Shown: positions 5,201-45,327, counted from the first letter of the stretch. The stretch: DNA of 64,000 nt from an uncultured Candidatus Saccharibacteria bacterium (GCA_964531475.1 CAZHCS010000001.1:112739-176738), one strand, 5' to 3'. A program made the numbers and translations. Notes: a model not told the origin generated them from the sequence alone.

Positions 5201-6898
5201 TTATTTATCTAGGCGGATAAACTCGTGCGATTCTTCTAATGCGAGCCCTACCTTTTTCTTTGGATTCCAAATGACATTTGGATCCATAATCTCTTTCATT
5301 TCCCGGAAAATTCCGACCATGACTTCGCCGAACATAAGTGCAAGGTATGGCGTACGAATAAGACCGTCATTGTGCTCGGCCGTCATAGAGCCGCCGCAAG
5401 TTTTGACCAATGCGAATACTTCTTTGGAAACTCGTTTAATAATATCCAGGGTTTTCGGATCTCGGAAATCCATAAGTGGAATGACATGCAAATTACCGTT
5501 TCCCAAATGCCCAGCAATCGTGTAGAGCATCTTTTCTCTGTCCAATATTTCAGTTAGTTTCGGCAGGTATTCCGGCAAACGCGCAACTGGCACAATGACG
5601 TCGTCAATAAACGGTGCCGTGCGGAGATTTTTGGAATGATCGGACAAAAGTTTGAATGAGTCACGGCGAATGTGGAAATATTTGTCGCGCTCTTCGGCGG
5701 TTTTGGTGATACGCGTTTTGACCCGAAAGCCCTTGATACGACTTTCGGCAACACGCACTTCCGAAATAAGTCCCTCTTCACTGTTTGAGACAAATTCGGC
5801 CAAAACGATGAGTTTTGGGATACCGCCTGTGAGCATCATGAAAAGTTCTGGCAGGAATTTGAAACCGTATGCAATGGTGCCGAAAAAACCTTTGTTTCGA
5901 ACGAAACTGCGAAAGAATTTCAATGCAAATGTGAGCGTATGGTCGTCGTAAACCTCTAAAGTCTCTACGTCATTTTTCATAAGCTCGGCGGTCAGCGCTG
6001 GTATTTCTTGCAAATTTTTTACGAAAACTACAAGCAACTTTGATCGCGTCTCTACTTCGACCAGTCGGTAAGTGATTTCAGTAATAATACCGGTGGTACC
6101 CTGCGCGCCGACAAAAAGCTTGGTCGGATCAAATGTTTCGGTCGACTGATTCCAAACATCCCAGATGAGATACCCCGAAGAATTCTTGTTAACGTTTGGC
6201 TTTGCTGCCGCAATCTCTGACATGTTGCGCTTGCACAGATTCCAAATTTTGCGATAGATTTCGGCCAGACGATTGTCTTCTAAAATTTTTGCTTCAAGTT
6301 CAGTCCGGCTAAGCGGCGCAACTTCATATTCATTGCCATCATCTAAAACAACTTTTAAGCGCTCGACAAAATCTTTATTCTGTCCGTATTTCAAAGTTTT
6401 TTCCCCTGCCCCATTGTTTGCAACCATGCCGCCAACTGTCGCAAGTTCGCGCGAGGCCGGATAGCACGGCATGATAAGACCCTGCTTGAGGGTTTCTTTC
6501 TCAAAATCTCGATAAAATGTGCCCGGACGAACAACCGCCTTTCCTGCAATATTGAAATCGTGACCAGTCGGAGATTTTTGGGTGCCAAATTTGCCCCGCT
6601 CTACACTAACTACGCCAGTCATATAACGAGTCATATCAAGAACCACGCTCATAGTAAGAGGTCCGCCCGTCATGTCGGTCCCAGCCCCACGAGCTGTAAA
6701 TGTTACATGGTAGTAACCCTCTGCGTTGATCTTATGAGCAAAACGCACAAGAGCGCCAATATCTGCGACATGTTTTGGATAAACTACCAACTCGGGTCGG
6801 ATAGAAAAAATACTGTAGTCGCGGCTATATTTTTCCAAAACTGATGGCGAATCATCAATGTCACCTTCTATAATCTTGGCGATTTCCTGTTTTAACAT
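5201..6898 (-). CDS. FAD-linked oxidase (GlcD / FAD-binding PCMH family)
   Basis: Preferred start is MLKQEIAK (ATG at 6898); the track's longer N-terminus runs into a terminator hairpin. The PCMH FAD-binding region ...HVTFTARGAGTDMTGGPL... is present. TATAAT sits 6 nt upstream of the ATG, so the mRNA is likely leaderless. Confidence 0.8.
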   Translation of the reverse strand: MLKQEIAKIIEGDIDDSPSVLEKYSRDYSIFSIRPELVVYPKHVADIGALVRFAHKINAEGYYHVTFTARGAGTDMTGGPLTMSVVLDMTRYMTGVVSVERGKFGTQKSPTGHDFNIAGKAVVRPGTFYRDFEKETLKQGLIMPCYPASRELATVGGMVANNGAGEKTLKYGQNKDFVERLKVVLDDGNEYEVAPLSRTELEAKILEDNRLAEIYRKIWNLCKRNMSEIAAAKPNVNKNSSGYLIWDVWNQSTETFDPTKLFVGAQGTTGIITEITYRLVEVETRSKLLVVFVKNLQEIPALTAELMKNDVETLEVYDDHTLTFALKFFRSFVRNKGFFGTIAYGFKFLPELFMMLTGGIPKLIVLAEFVSNSEEGLISEVRVAESRIKGFRVKTRITKTAEERDKYFHIRRDSFKLLSDHSKNLRTAPFIDDVIVPVARLPEYLPKLTEILDREKMLYTIAGHLGNGNLHVIPLMDFRDPKTLDIIKRVSKEVFALVKTCGGSMTAEHNDGLIRTPYLALMFGEVMVGIFREMKEIMDPNVIWNPKKKVGLALEESHEFIRLDK

Positions 6899-13779: not shown

Positions 13780-14136
13780 TTATTTCAGTTTCTGTCTCAT
13801 TGAGTTTAACATTTTCATTACTTCTGCCAATAGCTTCTCTGCAATTGAAGTATCAATGTTTTTACCGAATGGAAGATTTCTCAGCAAAATTAGTTGAGTC
13901 TCTAGTTCTGCACTTGACCCGTAGGCTATTGTAATAAAATTACAAAAATCCTTTCTTGTCCCTCGTTTACTACCTTCAGCAATATTGGACGGAATTGAAA
14001 CTGCGCATCTGTTCATCTGGGAAGAGAGTCCGAATTTCTCTGATTGTGGTAGCTGAGACGTGATCTCGTATACCTTAATTGCCAACTCCATACTCTTCTG
14101 CCAAACGACCAGGTCTTTGTTGGAATCCAAGCCCAT
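13780..14136 (-). CDS. Four-helix-bundle protein (PF05635-like; rRNA-IVS protein / Avd-like family)
   Basis: ...VWQKSMELAIKVYEIT...NRCAVSIPSNIAEGSKRGTRKDFCNFITIAYGSSAELETQLILL..., the hallmark pattern of this family. Length 118 aa. Confidence 0.7.
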   Translation of the reverse strand: MGLDSNKDLVVWQKSMELAIKVYEITSQLPQSEKFGLSSQMNRCAVSIPSNIAEGSKRGTRKDFCNFITIAYGSSAELETQLILLRNLPFGKNIDTSIAEKLLAEVMKMLNSMRQKLK

Positions 14137-15260: not shown

Positions 15261-15285
15261 CTGGTCGAGGTCGGACCTCGACCAG
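15261..15285. repeat. REP palindrome, family 1 (inverted copy)
   Basis: CTGGTCGAGGTCgGACCTCGACCAG, a 25-bp palindrome 18 nt upstream of the RAYT start. Confidence 0.7.
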
Positions 15286-15302: not shown

Positions 15303-15920
15303 ATGACTCGAAAAGATTCCTTTACGACCGGTTATCATTATCACGTTTATAATCGTGGTGTCGATAAAAGAAACATTTTCAAAAGCAAATCTGATTATGC
15401 TCGATTTTTAGACATACTCGAGCGTTTCAATAGTTCCCTAGCTGCAAATAATACGTCACGTGATTCAGTTCGCAAGAGAAAAGAAGACCTATCGTTAGTC
15501 AAAATTCACGCACATTGCTTAATGCCGAATCATTACCATCTTATTTTGGAGCAGCTTGTAGACAATGGGATTTCAAAATTTCTTCAAAAAGTAATGACGG
15601 GCTATACGATGTATTTCAATTTGAAACACGAACGATCAGGCGTTTTATTCCAAGGCAAGACAAAATCAAAACTTATACTAGAGGACGACTATCTCCGTTG
15701 GCTTAAGCAGTACATTGCACTCAATCCACTCGATCTCCATACACCAAATTGGAAAGAAAATGGAATTCAAGATCATAAAAGTGCAATCAATTTTTTGAAA
15801 GATTACGCTTATAGAAGCGAATACGATTATAACGATTGCGACCTTAACGGCTTTATTAAAGAATTACAAGAAGACAACTGGTCGAGGTCCGACCTCGACC
15901 AGGTGCGCGTTGAGAAATAA
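15303..15920 (+). CDS. IS200-like Y1 transposase (REP-associated tyrosine transposase, RAYT-like)
   Basis: HUH motif CLMPNHYHLILE and the catalytic-Tyr helix KQYIALNPLDL. The 3' end of the ORF runs through a REP copy. Confidence 0.8.
   Translation: MTRKDSFTTGYHYHVYNRGVDKRNIFKSKSDYARFLDILERFNSSLAANNTSRDSVRKRKEDLSLVKIHAHCLMPNHYHLILEQLVDNGISKFLQKVMTGYTMYFNLKHERSGVLFQGKTKSKLILEDDYLRWLKQYIALNPLDLHTPNWKENGIQDHKSAINFLKDYAYRSEYDYNDCDLNGFIKELQEDNWSRSDLDQVRVEK
15878..15902. repeat. REP palindrome, family 1
   Basis: CTGGTCGAGGTCcGACCTCGACCAG inside the last codons of the RAYT gene (WSRSDLDQV). Confidence 0.7.
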
Positions 15921-15980
15921 ATTGGTGGAAAAGCAAAGCGCCCCGTCGAAACAGGGCGCCAAGATGCTATTAGCTCATGC

Positions 15981-16463
15981 CTACGGCAGGTAGTACTTGA
16001 GATCCGAGTACCCGCCATCACTATCAGGATTAGCTTCCCACCCGAAGTCTTTCACCAGATGGTCTCTGAGCAGCTGTGCCATGGCAGCAAGTGCCTTTTT
16101 CCATTCAGGGTATTTCGTTTCAGAGTCCCTGAAGTCCACATAGTGAACACCGTCGGTGATACCGAGGATGCAATGATAGCGCTCTCCCTCATTGGGATAC
16201 AGGTTGATTCTCAACCCGATCAGATCTACGTCTTTGTTAATATCGAAAACGTACCTGGTCAATATTGTCATTCCAGGATATTCGTCACTAAGTCTTGCCC
16301 CCTTGGCATTGTTTGAATGACCATCAAGATCAAGAATTGCCTCTGGGGGCAAGACCTCTAGCCTGACACCCTTGTTCTCTGAGTTATGAACGTCCCACCG
16401 CTGAAAAGCGTCTGCCAACTCCTCAACGAGAACTCGAGCGATCTTATACTGGAGCATGTCCAT
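15981..16463 (-). CDS. Hypothetical protein
   Basis: 160-aa ORF adjacent to the RAYT unit. No motif recognised. Confidence 0.45.
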   Translation of the reverse strand: MDMLQYKIARVLVEELADAFQRWDVHNSENKGVRLEVLPPEAILDLDGHSNNAKGARLSDEYPGMTILTRYVFDINKDVDLIGLRINLYPNEGERYHCILGITDGVHYVDFRDSETKYPEWKKALAAMAQLLRDHLVKDFGWEANPDSDGGYSDLKYYLP

Positions 16464-16537
16464 TTTGCAATTGTGTTGTGCCCTTTTCAGGAGCTGGTTT
16501 GTACTTTTTGTGTCGGTAATTTTATAGCATTTTATTA

Positions 16538-17962
16538 CTATTTTGTCAATATTTCCTGGAGTATCTTCAAGGCAAGCTGCGGATTGGCGCTTCCCTTAGA
16601 CTCACGCATAAACTGCCCGACGAGGAATTGGATGGATTTTTCGTTACCGGATTTGTAGTCTAGGGCGACTTTCGGATTGGCGACGATGATGGCTTCGGCG
16701 GTGGCCTTGAGTTTACCTTCGTCGAATTCTTGAATGAGGCCGTGCTCTTTGGCGAAAGTCTCTGGATCGATATCAGCTTTTACGATTTCCGCGATAAGGT
16801 CTTTGGCTCCACGAGAGCTTAGTTTATTGTCGCCGAGCATCTGCATGATTTTCGCAAAGCTTTCTGGTTTCGGGAATTTAAAATCTGCGCCAGCAATCTT
16901 TCGAAGACCATTTAAATCAGACAAAATATAGTTCACTGCTGGTCGAGGTCCGACCTCGACCAGGATTGCTTCGAGAAATTGGATTAATTCAAAATCTGAA
17001 ACGAGAATCTCAACATCCTCATCTTTAATGCCAAGCGCCTTCAGCCTCTCACGCTTCGCAGACGGAAGTTCTGGCAATTCCGCTCGCATCTTTTCAAGAT
17101 CAAACATCTCATGCAAGTACATCTTCGGAATATCTGGTTCCGGGAAGTAACGATAGTCGTGAGAATCTTCTTTCTTCCTTTGTGAAAATGTCGATTGTTT
17201 GTTTTCGTCCCATCCGCGCGTTTCTTGGATAATCTCGCTTCCCTTGCCAGCTTCAAGAAGCGCAATGTGGCGCTTGATCTCGTACTCGGCCGCTTTTTCG
17301 ACAGCTTTGAAAGAGTTTATGTTTTTGACTTCGACTTTTGTGCCAAATTTGTCCGTATCAGAAACAGACAAGTTCAGCTCTACACGCATTTCACCCTTTT
17401 CCATGTTCGCATCAGACACACCGAGGGTTCGGAGAAGTAATTGGAGTTCGCGTCCGAAGTCACCCGCTTCTTTGGCGCTATGAATTACTGGTTCGGTAAC
17501 GAGTTCCATGAGTGGCACACCAGCGCGATTGTAGTCGATGAGCGAAAAGCCCGCCCCGACCGAAGCGTCGGGGTCGCCATCCCTGTGTTTGTTGTTCGCG
17601 GTATCTTCTTCGAGATGCACGCGCGTTACAGCGACACCATTGAGTTTTCCACCAGAAACGATCGGATATTTGTATTGAGAAATTTGGTAGCCTTTCGGGA
17701 TATCCGGATAGAAATAGTTCTTGCGGTCAAATTCGGTGAAGTTCGCGATGTTGGCACCGAGCGCGAGGCCGACTTTGACCACGCTCTCGACGGCTTTCAT
17801 ATTCGGCACAGGCAAAGTTCCTGGATGCGCCATACATACGGGACAAACATTGACGTTTGGCTTTTCCTCGTCGGGATTATTCCGGCACGCGCAAAACATC
17901 TTGGTAGTTGTTTTCAACTCCGCGTGAATTTCTAACCCAATTGTGACTTTGTAATCTTTCAT
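16538..17962 (-). CDS. gatB: Asp-tRNA(Asn)/Glu-tRNA(Gln) amidotransferase subunit B
   Basis: MKDYKVTIGLEIHAEL... GatB N-terminus and a C-terminal GatB/YqeY domain. It contains an in-frame REP copy at 16939-16963. Confidence 0.9.
   Translation of the reverse strand: MKDYKVTIGLEIHAELKTTTKMFCACRNNPDEEKPNVNVCPVCMAHPGTLPVPNMKAVESVVKVGLALGANIANFTEFDRKNYFYPDIPKGYQISQYKYPIVSGGKLNGVAVTRVHLEEDTANNKHRDGDPDASVGAGFSLIDYNRAGVPLMELVTEPVIHSAKEAGDFGRELQLLLRTLGVSDANMEKGEMRVELNLSVSDTDKFGTKVEVKNINSFKAVEKAAEYEIKRHIALLEAGKGSEIIQETRGWDENKQSTFSQRKKEDSHDYRYFPEPDIPKMYLHEMFDLEKMRAELPELPSAKRERLKALGIKDEDVEILVSDFELIQFLEAILVEVGPRPAVNYILSDLNGLRKIAGADFKFPKPESFAKIMQMLGDNKLSSRGAKDLIAEIVKADIDPETFAKEHGLIQEFDEGKLKATAEAIIVANPKVALDYKSGNEKSIQFLVGQFMRESKGSANPQLALKILQEILTK
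16939..16963. repeat. REP palindrome, family 1, embedded in-frame in gatB
   Basis: An identical 25-mer encoding LVEVGPRPA within the GatB linker region. Confidence 0.7.
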
Positions 17963-18039
17963 AGGCGTGCTTGTCCGTCCGTAGCTTTAGCGAAGGAGGA
18001 AATCTCGAGGCCGATGGTAACCTTGTACTTCGGATTCAT
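17959..18039 (-). other. 26-codon fossil copy of the gatB 5' end (uORF overlapping the gatB start)
   Basis: ATG at 18039. It translates MNPKYKVTIGLEISSFAKATDGQARL, versus the GatB N-terminus MKDYKVTIGLEIHAELKTT. Its TGA overlaps the gatB ATG (ATGA). Differences are mostly synonymous with higher-GC codons. Confidence 0.4.
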
Positions 18040-18127
18040 AAAGGGCATTTTAGCAGAAATTTACATTTTTCTTAAGTGTTTGACAAACAACTTAGACTAA
18101 AGTATTTTTATCTACAAACAGGACGTC

Positions 18128-18319
18128 ATGAAAATCTTCCGATATCGCCCAGCTAACAATGAAGAACGGGAACAGCATTTCCGGTTCGCCATGATTTGCA
18201 TCTTTGCCGTGGTCGGCTTTCTCATGGCAATAGTATTGCTGTCCCCTAACACAAGTCCTTTCGAGAAATTCCGAAAACACAATGACAAAGAGTTAGTCCC
18301 GCAAACCCAGCGGGACTAA
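18128..18319 (+). CDS. Small hypothetical membrane protein (63 aa)
   Basis: AGGA lies 4 nt upstream of the ATG, and there is one hydrophobic segment. The ORF is convergent with obg and abuts it. Coding status is uncertain. Confidence 0.3.
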   Translation: MKIFRYRPANNEEREQHFRFAMICIFAVVGFLMAIVLLSPNTSPFEKFRKHNDKELVPQTQRD

Positions 18320-18320
18320 T

Positions 18321-19319
18321 TTATTGCCTCAAAATCTTCACTAACTCATCCCCCACTTTCTTCACCGACTCATCATCAAACGCCGACATCGTTAAAACTT
18401 CCTTACCGAGCTTTTCAAATTCCTTTTTCATTTTCTTGATCGTATCAGCATCCGCAACATCTGTTTTCGTGAGAATGATTATTTCTGGCTTGGCCGCGAG
18501 CTCTTCATCATAATTTTCCAGTTCCTGGCGAATATTTTTATACGTCTGCATCATGCCAGAGGTTCCGAGGTCGTCCGAGGAGCTGAGATTTTCAAAAGAC
18601 ACGAGATGCGCGATCATTTTGGTGCGCTTGATGTGCTTGAGGAACTTGAGACCGAGCCCCTTGCCTTCGGACGCGCCTTCGATGATGCCCGGGATGTCGG
18701 CAATGACGAATTCTTGGAGAACGCCCAAATGCGGATCAAGCGTCGTGAAGGCGTAGCTCCCGATTTTCGACTTGGAATTCGTGACGGCGTTGATGAGCGT
18801 ACTCTTGCCCGCATTCGGATAGCCGACGAGCCCGAGGTCGGCAAACAAGCGGAGTTCGATATGAAAATGCCCAGCCTCGCCCGGCTTGCCGGGAGTCGAC
18901 TCGTACGGAGTCGTGTTAGTCGACGATTTGAAATGTTCGTTCCCGAGACCGCCCTTGCCGCCCTTGAGCACAAGGATCTTCTGTCCGGCTTCAGTGAGCT
19001 CGTATTCTTTTCCTGTCTCGTTCTGGGTGACGACGGACCCAACCGGAAGCTTGATGAACAGGTCTTTGCCCTGCGCGCCGGCCATCTTTTTCTTGAAGCC
19101 CGCTTCGCCGTTCTCGGCCAAGAATTTCGTATCGTGGGTGTAGCTCGCGAGGAGTCCCGAATCTTTGACGCCTTCGATATAGACATCGCCGCCGTTCCCG
19201 CCATCGCCGCCGGCAGGCCCGCCGCGGTCTTCGAATTTGTCCTGGCGCCAGCGAACAACCCCGTCTCCGCCGGAGCCTGCACGCGCGTAGATTGTCAGTT
19301 CATCGATGAATGCCCTAAT
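18321..19319 (-). CDS. obg: GTPase Obg
   Basis: Obg-fold N-terminus (FIDELTIYARAGSGGDG..GGDGGNGG) plus a G-domain (GYPNAGKST, DIPG). The in-frame region upstream of the first ATG has no ATG/GTG/TTG. The start is proposed as ATT or ATA overlapping the upstream stop (TAATT). Confidence 0.75.
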   Translation of the reverse strand: MRAFIDELTIYARAGSGGDGVVRWRQDKFEDRGGPAGGDGGNGGDVYIEGVKDSGLLASYTHDTKFLAENGEAGFKKKMAGAQGKDLFIKLPVGSVVTQNETGKEYELTEAGQKILVLKGGKGGLGNEHFKSSTNTTPYESTPGKPGEAGHFHIELRLFADLGLVGYPNAGKSTLINAVTNSKSKIGSYAFTTLDPHLGVLQEFVIADIPGIIEGASEGKGLGLKFLKHIKRTKMIAHLVSFENLSSSDDLGTSGMMQTYKNIRQELENYDEELAAKPEIIILTKTDVADADTIKKMKKEFEKLGKEVLTMSAFDDESVKKVGDELVKILRQ

Positions 19320-24745: not shown

Positions 24746-25774
24746 ATGAACGCAATCATCTACGGCATCATCGGTCTCGTTGTCGGACTTATTCTCGTCC
24801 GGCTTTTCCAGTCGCGTAAAAAGTCTGACGACGGCGCGCCGCTTTTCAAAATGCTTGCCGACGAGATGAAAGACCTGCGCCGCACAATGGACGAAAAACT
24901 CCACCAGTCCAACGAATCTATCCGCTACCAGTCGAGCGAATCACAGCGCCTCATCAAAGAGATCACGCGCGAAATAACCGAAGTCAAAGAGACGGGCCGA
25001 CAAGTCATGGGCTTCACCGACCAACTCCAGCAGCTTCAGAATATGCTAAAGAATCCAAAAAGCCGCGGCGTACTCGGCGAGTATTACCTCGAGACACTTT
25101 TAAAAAATACGCTACCGCCTGGCTCGTACCAGATGCAGTATCCTTTTCAAAATGGCGAGATCGTCGACGCGGCAGTCTTTGTCAAAGACAAAATTATTCC
25201 CGTTGATTCAAAATTCTCTCTCGAAAATTATAATCGTATTACCGATGCTGCTGATCCGTCGGAGCGCGATCGCTTGGAAAAACTATTCTTGAACGATTTG
25301 AAAAATCGCATAGTCGAAACAGCCAAATACATCCGTCCGGAACTAAATACGATGGATTTCGCGTTCATGTTCATTCCCCACGAAGCGATTTATTATGATT
25401 TGCTCGTAAACAAGATCGGCGCGATCGGCGAAGATACTGAAAACCTCATCCAACGCGCAGCATCCAAGTACCGAGTCATCATCGTCTCACCGACCAGCTT
25501 CCTCGCGTACCTGCAGACTGTGCTCCAGGGACTCAAAGCTTTGCAGATCGAAGAATCCGCCAAAGAAATCCAGAAGCGTGTCGGCGAGCTAGGCAAGCAT
25601 TTGAAGTCTTACGAGGACTACCACAACAAACTCGGTCGCAATCTTTCGACAGTCGTGAACCAGTACGAACTTTCTGGCAAAGAACTCAAGAAGATCGACA
25701 AAGACGTCTATCGCATCTCTGGCGAAACTGTCGGCTTGGAGCCGCTCGAAATCGAAAAGCCTCGCGAAGACTAG
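24746..25774 (+). CDS. rmuC: DNA recombination protein RmuC
   Basis: N-terminal TM segment and coiled coil, plus the RmuC core (...DFAFMFIPHEAIY...). Confidence 0.8.
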   Translation: MNAIIYGIIGLVVGLILVRLFQSRKKSDDGAPLFKMLADEMKDLRRTMDEKLHQSNESIRYQSSESQRLIKEITREITEVKETGRQVMGFTDQLQQLQNMLKNPKSRGVLGEYYLETLLKNTLPPGSYQMQYPFQNGEIVDAAVFVKDKIIPVDSKFSLENYNRITDAADPSERDRLEKLFLNDLKNRIVETAKYIRPELNTMDFAFMFIPHEAIYYDLLVNKIGAIGEDTENLIQRAASKYRVIIVSPTSFLAYLQTVLQGLKALQIEESAKEIQKRVGELGKHLKSYEDYHNKLGRNLSTVVNQYELSGKELKKIDKDVYRISGETVGLEPLEIEKPRED

Positions 25775-25799
25775 CTGGTCGAGGTCCGACCTCGACCAG
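25775..25799. repeat. REP palindrome, family 1
   Basis: An identical 25-mer starting directly after the rmuC stop codon. Confidence 0.7.
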
Positions 25800-44635: not shown

Positions 44636-44664
44636 CAATATTCAAGGTCGAACCTTGAATATTG
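44636..44664. repeat. REP palindrome, family 2
   Basis: CAATATTCAAGGTCGAACCTTGAATATTG, abutting the RAYT-2 stop codon. Confidence 0.65.
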
Positions 44665-44665
44665 A

Positions 44666-45280
44666 CTAATCTTCATCATCAAGCAACCCAAGCCTTTCAG
44701 CACCACTTAAGTACTTTATATATGGATCATAGTTATCACAGCTTGACCATTGAAAAGTCTTCAGGAATTTCTTCGTCTTTTCAAGCGAAATCACCCTTCC
44801 CCTTTCTCGCCAACCCTTTTCATACAGGTCTACCGGATTGAGAAGAAGGTATGTTTTCACCTGCTTATAATGCAGATCCGATGTTATAAATTTTGATTTA
44901 GTCTTACCTTGAAACAAGACACCGCTCCGTTGATGCCTCTTATTGAAATACATGGTATAGCTCGTCATCACGCGCTGCAAGAATTTTGAAATACCGCCAT
45001 CAACCTTTTGCTCAAGGATGAGATGGTAATGATTAGGCATGAGGCAATAGTCCAATATATCAACTAGCTGCTCGGCCTCCTTGCGCGGACCACGAGACTT
45101 TCCAGAAAGTCGTATGTCGAGATTCTTTTTCACGTTTCCCCGGATTCCTCTATTCAAATATTCGAGAATGAACAAGAACCTTTCGTAGTCATGTTTGTCC
45201 AGAAATGTTTTTCTCTTATCGGTCCCGCGATTATAAACGTGATATCTTTCACCAGTTATAAATGGTTCTCGAAATCCCAT
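44666..45280 (-). CDS. IS200-like Y1 transposase (RAYT-like), second paralog
   Basis: HUH motif CLMPNHYHLILEQ and the Tyr helix KTYLLLNPVDL. It is about 50% identical to the 15303 copy. Confidence 0.8.
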   Translation of the reverse strand: MGFREPFITGERYHVYNRGTDKRKTFLDKHDYERFLFILEYLNRGIRGNVKKNLDIRLSGKSRGPRKEAEQLVDILDYCLMPNHYHLILEQKVDGGISKFLQRVMTSYTMYFNKRHQRSGVLFQGKTKSKFITSDLHYKQVKTYLLLNPVDLYEKGWRERGRVISLEKTKKFLKTFQWSSCDNYDPYIKYLSGAERLGLLDDED

Positions 45281-45292
45281 CCGACCATTATA

Positions 45293-45327
45293 CCCCAGTA
45301 TCCAAGGTTCGACCTTGAATACTGGGG
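45293..45327. repeat. REP palindrome, family 2 (variant)
   Basis: CCCCAGTATCCAAGGTTCGACCTTGAATACTGGGG, 13 nt upstream of the RAYT-2 start. Confidence 0.65.

Follow-up and report, generated by a model that had tools for sequence, protein, structure and literature searches.

An in-frame REP palindrome in a loop of GatB, seen in an uncultured Candidatus Saccharibacteria bacterium and its relatives

How does a repeat that is extragenic by definition, and whose persistence is usually studied between genes, come to be translated as part of a housekeeping protein? The question is raised by a stretch of 64,000 nucleotides (nt) from an uncultured Candidatus Saccharibacteria bacterium (GCA_964531475.1, CAZHCS010000001.1:112739-176738; as a whole, the window), in which a 25-nt repetitive extragenic palindrome (REP), designated REP-1, lies within gatB. 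We consider it probable, though well short of certain, that the GatB loop is permissive and houses a REP copy that the protein tolerates and that has been kept palindromic and locally homogenized. On this reading the copy did not land recently in a site new to such repeats; its place is a variable helix-turn-helix junction of the GatB helical domain.

The gatB copy and its REP family

The initial annotation had reported a 25-bp REP in frame within gatB at 16939-16963, and these coordinates were confirmed, the repeat covering codons 334-342. The window strand reads CTGGTCGAGGTCCGACCTCGACCAG there, that is, CTGGTCGAGGTC-C-GACCTCGACCAG, with perfect 12-bp arms around a single central base; in the gatB sense, the repeat is CTG GTC GAG GTC GGA CCT CGA CCA G and encodes L334 V E V G P R P A342. 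GatB is intact, as had been stated: the 474-residue protein is full length, with both domains (GatB_N, catalytic, and GatB_Yqey) and no frameshift, and matches Thermotoga maritima GatB (3AL0_B) with 393 bits. In an AlphaFold model of the window protein, the helix spanning 324-337 is followed, after a break at G338-P339, by one spanning 340-360, such that L334-V337 form the end of the first helix, G338-P339 the turn, and R340 the start of the second helix. The RNA hairpin predicted at the copy has an energy of -20.1 kcal/mol (z = -3.5). The same 33-nt gatB context was found in L001 (Logan SRR23592395), an independent assembly from another sequencing run whose GatB is 95% identical, which rules out an assembly chimera.

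REP-1 is present in four exact copies within the window as compared with none expected, and 100 dinucleotide-preserving shuffles yielded no match with three mismatches allowed. Its length falls inside the size range of REPs (palindromes of 20-40 bp capable of forming a stem-loop); the copy count refers to the 64-kb window, whereas the classical figure of >100 copies is per genome. A scan of species-representative genomes with GGTCGAGGTCSGACCTCGACC gave no matches in that collection, of which the source genome is not a member. Two of the four copies overlap open reading frames (ORFs; gatB and RAYT-1) and one more abuts a stop codon, so that the family is not extragenic in the strict sense. None of the four has a GTAG or CGTC tag next to the stem (context AA-CTGGTCGAGG...), which places the stems outside the two described REP super-families (PMC3733652); relatives show GTAT at the tag position.

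The 25-mer is a genuine REP-family member belonging to the adjacent gene for a REP-associated tyrosine transposase (RAYT-1), an arrangement known as a REPtron. The assignment follows from the adjoining ORF, a divergent Y1/HUH transposase whose best structural match is 4ER8. The profile matches of RAYT-1 are specific though weak, at 22.9 bits against Pfam Y1_Tnp (PF01797; cut-off 23) and 30.5 bits against NCBIfam REP_Tyr_transpos (NF047646; cut-off 80). A sequence search of the PDB returned nothing meaningful; a meaningful match there came from the fold search only. When the AlphaFold2 model of RAYT-1 (predicted local distance difference test, pLDDT, 85) was submitted to Foldseek, the top PDB match was 4ER8_A (E = 3.7e-7, probability 1.00), the E. 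coli RAYT in complex with a REP hairpin, followed by the TnpA proteins of IS608 and ISDra2. Across 46 RAYT homologues, H77 and H79 (the HUH motif H77-Y-H79), the catalytic Y137, and N141 are invariant. RAYT-1 is bracketed by the copies at 15261-15285 and 15878-15902, the central base of the former being opposite to that of the other three REP-1 copies, which is the REPtron layout; this layout recurs in L001, L168, L002, L169, and distant loci. The site orthologous to the 15261-15285 copy is present in L001, L168, L002, L169, and L004, and the overlap of the second copy with the RAYT C-terminus is kept in orthologues (SR[SF][DN]LD). The proposed tie between the palindrome and a RAYT-like gene thus stands, as do the copies placed by the annotation in the RAYT-1 C-terminus and directly after the rmuC stop (15878-15902 and 25775-25799).

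The rmuC copy has no REP at the corresponding site in L001, where, relative to the window, ~12 nt are replaced and the flanks have diverged; a clean target-site signature was not found in this comparison. At the same 3' spot L002 and L003 have terminator-like hairpins, so the window REP takes the usual position of a 3'-end hairpin.

A RAYT-1 paralogue, RAYT-2, scores 28.9 bits against Y1_Tnp (cut-off 23) and 34 against the NCBIfam model (cut-off 80), and with its own palindromes constitutes a second REPtron inside the same 64 kb. RAYT homologues are also found convergent with and downstream of gatB in L009, L083, L088, L022, L013, and L165 (GatB 56-71% identical), where each of the six loci has its own perfect palindromes at both flanks with the center GTT-S-AAC. 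That distant Paceibacteria have a RAYT gene with palindromes of its own beside gatB indicates that the RAYT-REP pair is old at this locus and vertically inherited. In L004 (~6190-6300), no RAYT gene stands between gatB and the neighboring gene gap, where one REP (ATGCGAGGTTGAACCTCGCAC) and a remnant of the RAYT-downstream terminator are left, which fits a deletion by recombination between the flanking REPs. A third cognate palindrome lies within the RAYT frame in L088 (8154-8176), L022 (7857-7879), L013 (8660-8680), and L144 (783-807), and L083, L022, L013, and L165 have a palindrome copy no more than ~20 nt from the gatB stop.

The same gatB codons in relatives

The source organism falls within the Patescibacteria/Paceibacterota. 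Close relatives were obtained by exact-protein look-ups, and GatB-based locus searches of genome and metagenome contigs supplied, among the matches listed, relatives of up to 73% identity that were used as an outgroup. Among these listed matches, the GatB loop of the relatives at or below 73% identity is always of a 16-residue, REP-free type, and most Paceibacteria GatB sequences have this 16-residue loop (..DKEKIKTAS-NY) with no GC-rich palindrome. In contrast, the subclade near the window has a loop of 12-13 residues with the form x-[EK]-V-[EGD]-P-[KR]-x3-N-Y. With fewer residues in the window loop than in the REP-free type, the palindrome brings no net insertion.

In the DNA of orthologues, the palindrome recurs at identical codons with the same geometry and frame around a core GAGGTY-G-RACCTC, and the outer arms differ, both sides changing together (Table 1). 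The amino acids encoded by the left arm vary freely among orthologues, and pairing is retained. No palindrome was found in the gatB loop of L170 (KVDPK), L171 (KVESK), or L168, which has a 16-type loop whose peptide differs at 1 of 16 residues from that of P0009, a member of another lineage. Predicted RNA hairpins across the loci range from the -20.1 kcal/mol of the window to -4.8 kcal/mol in L170.

Other GatB proteins had been said to have unrelated residues at this position, a description that the alignments do not support. Close orthologues (77-95% identical) carry a palindrome-encoded x-[EK]-V-[EG]-P-[RL] at the same codons, and three structures have an aligned P-[KQ]-x3-N-W motif: the REP-coded P-R-P-A-V-N-Y is matched by P-K-D-L-S-N-W in T. 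maritima (3AL0), P-K-G-I-V-N-W in Aquifex aeolicus (3H0L), and P-Q-A-L-A-N-W in Thermus thermophilus (3KFU), whereas Staphylococcus aureus GatB has D-V-K instead. The REP-coded Pro-Arg keeps the spacing P-[KRQ]-x3-N-[WY] seen in the three aligned structures that have Pro here; of the three frames in which the palindrome could be read, one thus reproduces the native motif along with its spacing. Whether relatives carry the peptide without REP-like DNA can be answered with yes only in part: in two of them, L170 and L171, a related peptide is encoded by non-palindromic DNA.

When covariation between the arms was computed over nine distinct sequences, 73% of cells paired as compared with 63.5% in shuffles, 13 cells had changed on both arms (5.9 +/- 1.9 in shuffles), and the covariation score of 0.282 (0.155 in shuffles) was reached by 0 of 500 shuffles, with all slid registers scoring much lower. 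Covariation was also computed on a smaller set of sequences. Given so small a sample of sequences that are akin to one another, we take the result as supportive rather than conclusive.

Distant lineages have other in-frame inserts in the same GatB loop (QGISS(R/S)xxAERGDSL, PARHHEGSGAGGN, and DPEGKSTSYGAGR; L025, L028, L088, L090, L111; P0066, P0086, P0089, P0099, P0106). These were considered as further palindromes and rejected, stems of 8 bp or more with one mismatch or none being absent from the DNA of L025, L028, L088, L090, and L111. The loop is an insertion hot spot, and the inserts speak for its tolerance. Elsewhere in the window gatB (17549-17572, codons 131-138), a clean insertion of 24 nt, CCCGACGCTTCGGTCGGGGCGGGC (PDASVGAG) with the stem CCCCGAC/GTCGGGG, gives another hairpin in frame, which occurs once in the window and is found also in L168 but not in L001, L002, or L003. 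Residues 124-140 of the GatB model have pLDDT below 50, and P0009 and P0030 have bigger inserts in this second loop. A conserved sugar-kinase gene of the PfkB family in L169 (17055..18074, minus strand) contains, in frame, the perfect palindrome CTTGGGGGT-TGG-ACCCCCAAG (17422-17442), which coincides with a six-residue insertion (LGVQPPSEDM vs LGTK--ENDI in five orthologues) and adds a further palindromic insert read in frame in this clade.

Table 1 Features of the window and gatB palindromes of orthologous loci
Feature	Coordinates	Strand	Description
gatB	16538..17962	-	Asp/Glu-tRNA amidotransferase subunit B; 474 aa, intact; Pfam GatB_N 1.8e-104, GatB_Yqey 1.1e-29
REP-1, gatB copy	16939..16963	-	codons 334-342, LVEVGPRPA; helix-turn-helix junction of GatB helical domain
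REP-1, upstream copy	15261..15285		17 nt upstream of RAYT-1 ORF, 59 nt upstream of gap; central base flipped
RAYT-1	15303..15920	+	divergent Y1/HUH tyrosine transposase-like; 205 aa; convergent with gatB
REP-1, RAYT-1 C-terminus copy	15878..15902		third base of codon 192 to codon 200; reads W193-Q200, W S R S D L D Q
rmuC	24746..25774	+	Pfam RmuC 5.8e-54
REP-1, rmuC copy	25775..25799		begins at first base past rmuC TAG stop (25772-25774)
RAYT-2	44666..45280	-	RAYT-1 paralogue (49% identical); 204 aa; own flanking palindromes
RAYT-2 palindrome	44636-44664		CAATATTCAAGGTCGAACCTTGAATATTG
RAYT-2 palindrome	45293-45327		CCCCAGTATCCAAGGTTCGACCTTGAATACTGGGG
gatB palindrome, window and L001			CTGGTCGAGGTC-G-GACCTCGACCAG; arm pairing 12/12
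gatB palindrome, L169			CGATTAGAGGTC-G-GACCTCTAATCG; arm pairing 12/12
gatB palindrome, L004			GGAGTAGAGGTC-G-GACCTCGACTCC; arm pairing 11/12
gatB palindrome, L172			TAACACTCAAGGT-CGA-ACCTCGAGTGTTA; arm pairing 12/13
gatB palindrome, L006			GACTAGAGGT-CGA-ACCTCGAGTC; arm pairing 9/10
gatB palindrome, L002 and L003			short cores only; weak pairing

The surroundings of gatB vary as well. Between the gatB stop and the 3' REP of RAYT-1 (~15960-16537), the window, L001, and L168 have non-homologous sequence; this slot holds a 160-residue ORF in the window (15981..16463, minus strand; no Pfam match) and small ORFs of 106 and 78 residues in L002 and L169, respectively. The region just upstream of gatB (~17993-18350) is replaced in the window relative to L001 and L168. 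Beside gap lies an ORF of 118 residues (13780..14136, minus strand) of the 23S rRNA-intervening-sequence or bAvd-like four-helix-bundle family (PF05635, 7.6e-38), which is found beside gap in L004, too.

History and upkeep of the gatB palindrome

The DNA of gatB is a mosaic. Compared with L168, the window gene is 96-100% identical over codons 135-255 and 396-456 and 50-62% identical over codons 314-366; the divergent block spans ~17090-16810 (~280 nt, 47-70% identity to L168) with the REP in its middle, and across this block the window and L001 are 97-100% identical. The REP as a recombination breakpoint was considered and rejected, since the divergent segment runs to both sides of it. L168 has a RAYT that is 98.5% identical and an identical REP at both RAYT flanks, yet no gatB copy. 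In segment trees, both loop types are interspersed in every part of gatB, with L004 and L169 placed beside 16-type sequences. The ~280 nt around the gatB REP form an old recombinant haplotype, and the alignments and trees point to recombination and probably to more than one acquisition at the loop, whether the palindrome came once in the distant past and was then recombined or came repeatedly.

Some copies within a genome have changed in concert. The RAYT flank sites are orthologous across genomes, as seen from their conserved surroundings, and both are of the type GTATCGAGGTT-S-AACCTCGATAC in L002 and L169 and CTGGTCGAGGTC-S-GACCTCGACCAG in the window, L001, and L168; the two sites have thus changed alike, with arms paired. 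In the window and L001, the gatB copy is identical at 25 of 25 positions to the RAYT-flank REPs of the same genome despite the old divergent haplotype in which it sits. The gatB 29-mer of L002 (TAAGTATCAAGGTCGAACCTCGAACATCG) matches the gap-upstream site of that genome (TAAGTATCGAGGTTGAACCTTGAACATGG) at 25 of 29 positions, the 8-nt flank TAAGTATC included, but the window gatB orthologue at only 19 of 29 (hand count).

How, then, did the gatB copy arise, and what keeps it? If REP-1 had recently transposed de novo into a gatB that was free of REPs until then, as the initial annotation had implied for the lineage of the window, this would account for the complete identity of the gatB copy to the other copies and for a sister, L168, that has the same RAYT and REPs without a gatB copy; the rmuC copy, being lineage-specific, indicates that new REP sites do arise. 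We nevertheless regard such an event as improbable, given that L168 differs by the whole divergent haplotype rather than by the presence or absence of 25 nt, that orthologues of the same haplotype class are already palindromic at identical codons and frame, and that the loop, at 12-13 rather than 16 residues, is shorter and not longer than the REP-free type. The direction could also be reversed, with a native gatB loop, its V-E/D-P-K/R codons mildly palindromic by chance, giving rise to the REP-1 variant or REP-1 converging on it. The P-[KRQ]-x3-N-[WY] motif of the three structures with Pro at this position, the palindrome-free K-V-D-P-K loop of L170, and the location of RAYT ~1 kb from gatB are consistent with this course, but the core RAGGTY-S-RACCTY is found at the flanks of RAYT-2, as it is at distant RAYT homologues whose gatB is without a REP, and must therefore predate the gatB copy, and in L004 and L169 the palindromes sit in another register on a 16-type loop backbone; we consider this origin very improbable. 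Repeats can mis-join metagenome contigs, but an assembly or binning artefact, with a chimeric join at the repeat, is virtually inconceivable here in view of the identical context in the independent assembly L001 and of a continuous ORF with GatB homology on either side of the REP.

The palindrome might instead be a selected cis-element, either a DNA hairpin to which RAYT binds or a hairpin in the mRNA through which gatB translation, decay, or co-translational folding at a domain junction is tuned. Changes that compensate each other across the two arms in several lineages, near-perfect hairpins built from different arm sequences, predicted RNA hairpins of -15 to -20 kcal/mol with z about -3 in the window, L169, and L004, and left-arm residues that are free to vary while pairing persists all point in this direction. 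However, close relatives whose gatB is normal and intact have lost pairing or have no palindrome (L168, L170, L171, L003, and L002; -5 to -8 kcal/mol), most Paceibacteria among the matches listed lack it, and typical RNase III sites require a stem longer than 11 bp. Template switching between arms, moreover, gives the same pattern without selection (PMC7202029, PMC8604942), and a selected element therefore seems unlikely to us. Similarly doubtful is the broader proposal that the gatB loop, the RAYT C-terminus, and the gap-upstream site are a small set of orthologous REP sites that have long evolved in concert in a streamlined CPR lineage, with pairing in the essential coding sequence not just tolerated but actively maintained by RAYT or by selection on an mRNA or DNA hairpin. 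If true, nature would here provide an example of how a transposase system, once domesticated, shapes the gene sequence for an enzyme of translation fidelity.

Our preferred explanation remains a tolerated, locally homogenized REP copy. In this Paceibacteria subclade, a REP-like palindrome would have been long resident at the junction, always in the x-E/K-V-G/E-P-R frame, and because in the window and the other 12-13-residue loops that frame keeps the native P-[KR]-x3-N-Y spacing, the protein would tolerate it. The outer arms would drift while pairing stays, most likely through arm-to-arm template switching, copy-to-copy conversion, or both, with RAYT possibly involved in renewing or homogenizing the copies; in the lineage of the window and L001, the gatB copy would have been made identical to the cognate REP of RAYT-1, as were both RAYT-flank sites. 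Template switching in quasipalindromes is known to homogenize and extend arms, coding DNA included (PMC7202029, PMC8604942), and either this or conversion between dispersed copies can give the pattern without selection. The effect on gatB is probably neutral or slight, the 11-bp, -20 kcal/mol mRNA hairpin being one that a translating ribosome could unwind. Family membership, position, frame, the orthologous palindromes, their covariation, and the mosaicism of gatB are what the sequences show. Both the homogenizing mechanism and this neutrality are what we infer from the pattern.

Several observations weigh against this explanation. The L169 and L004 palindromes stand in another register relative to N-Y, with a 16-type tail (AKVANY and VKTTNY), a difference that would fit independent acquisitions rather than one ancient event; they also differ from the RAYT-flank or gap-upstream REPs of their own genomes, such that homogenization within a genome is not universal. 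Loops of the K-V-D-P-K type occur in L170, L171, P0020, P0028, and P0044, and the corresponding DNA of L170 and L171 is non-palindromic, so the P-[KR] loop may be native and the palindrome a later addition. With nine distinct sequences, kinship alone can beat shuffles in the absence of any structure. The copy number of the family, finally, is that of a 64-kb window and not of a genome.

The gatB copy among known palindromic elements

A REP kept or renewed at the same codons of a housekeeping gene, with its stem preserved through paired changes, and a REPtron in Patescibacteria are among the less common things seen here. Another is the mimicry of the native loop motif by the reading frame, to which the palindrome may owe its tolerance by the protein; the known function of GatB is unchanged by the finding. 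The gatB case offers a compact natural test of whether palindromes persist in coding DNA through mutation bias (from template switching or conversion) or through selection. It is also a caution for annotation: where a conserved protein of a reduced genome differs by a short peptide, the difference can stem from a repeat.

Like the REP/REPtron systems of E. coli (TnpA_REP, 4ER8) and Pseudomonas (REPINs), that of the window comprises a short, GC-rich, genome-repeated palindrome, two opposite-orientation copies of which flank a single-copy Y1/HUH transposase-like gene; the palindrome is lineage-specific and co-varies with a RAYT that is vertically inherited at a fixed locus, and one copy lies right behind a stop codon. 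Unlike them, it has stems without the GTAG/CGTC tag, a RAYT far below the NCBIfam equivalog cut-off (30.5 vs 80 bits), a streamlined Patescibacteria host, and four copies in 64 kb, of which two overlap coding sequence.

In-frame palindromes in reduced genomes have their classic precedent in the Rickettsia palindromic elements (RPE), which Ogata et al. are said to have described in 2000 within protein genes. RPE-1 elements are much longer than 25 nt, and no RAYT dedicated to RPE is known. Both are selfish palindromic repeats tolerated in frame in essential genes of a reduced genome, but an RPE adds a peptide segment and the gatB 25-mer gives no net insertion. The in-frame location of RPE within protein genes is also cited in PMC3733652.

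An in-frame REP in gatB is thus unusual but belongs to a known kind, as intragenic REPs have been reported within uvrA, dnaE2, recB, tRNA synthetase, and truB genes of several species, replication and repair genes among them (Di Nocera, De Gregorio, and Rocco 2013, PMC3733652), where two Xanthomonas species have recB REPs at about the same site and such REPs are discussed as probably neutral inserts in loops or linkers. The gatB copy resembles these in lying wholly within a conserved housekeeping ORF and being translated in a presumably tolerant loop or linker; it differs in that its site was tracked through about ten genomes with arm covariation and a fixed frame, in that it mimics the native loop motif, and in its identity to the RAYT-flank copies of this lineage. 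Template switching in quasipalindromes (PMC7202029, PMC8604942) likewise yields seemingly compensatory multi-nucleotide changes that perfect or extend inverted repeats, coding sequence included, but it is a mutational mechanism with no element family, and it is only by inference that we assign it a role at gatB. What sets the gatB case apart from known ones is its host clade, together with a REP that has no tag and a RAYT that has diverged very far. Further differences are that over about ten genomes a palindrome has persisted with codons and frame unchanged and with paired arm changes, that it mimics a native motif, and that in this lineage it is identical to the copies flanking the RAYT.

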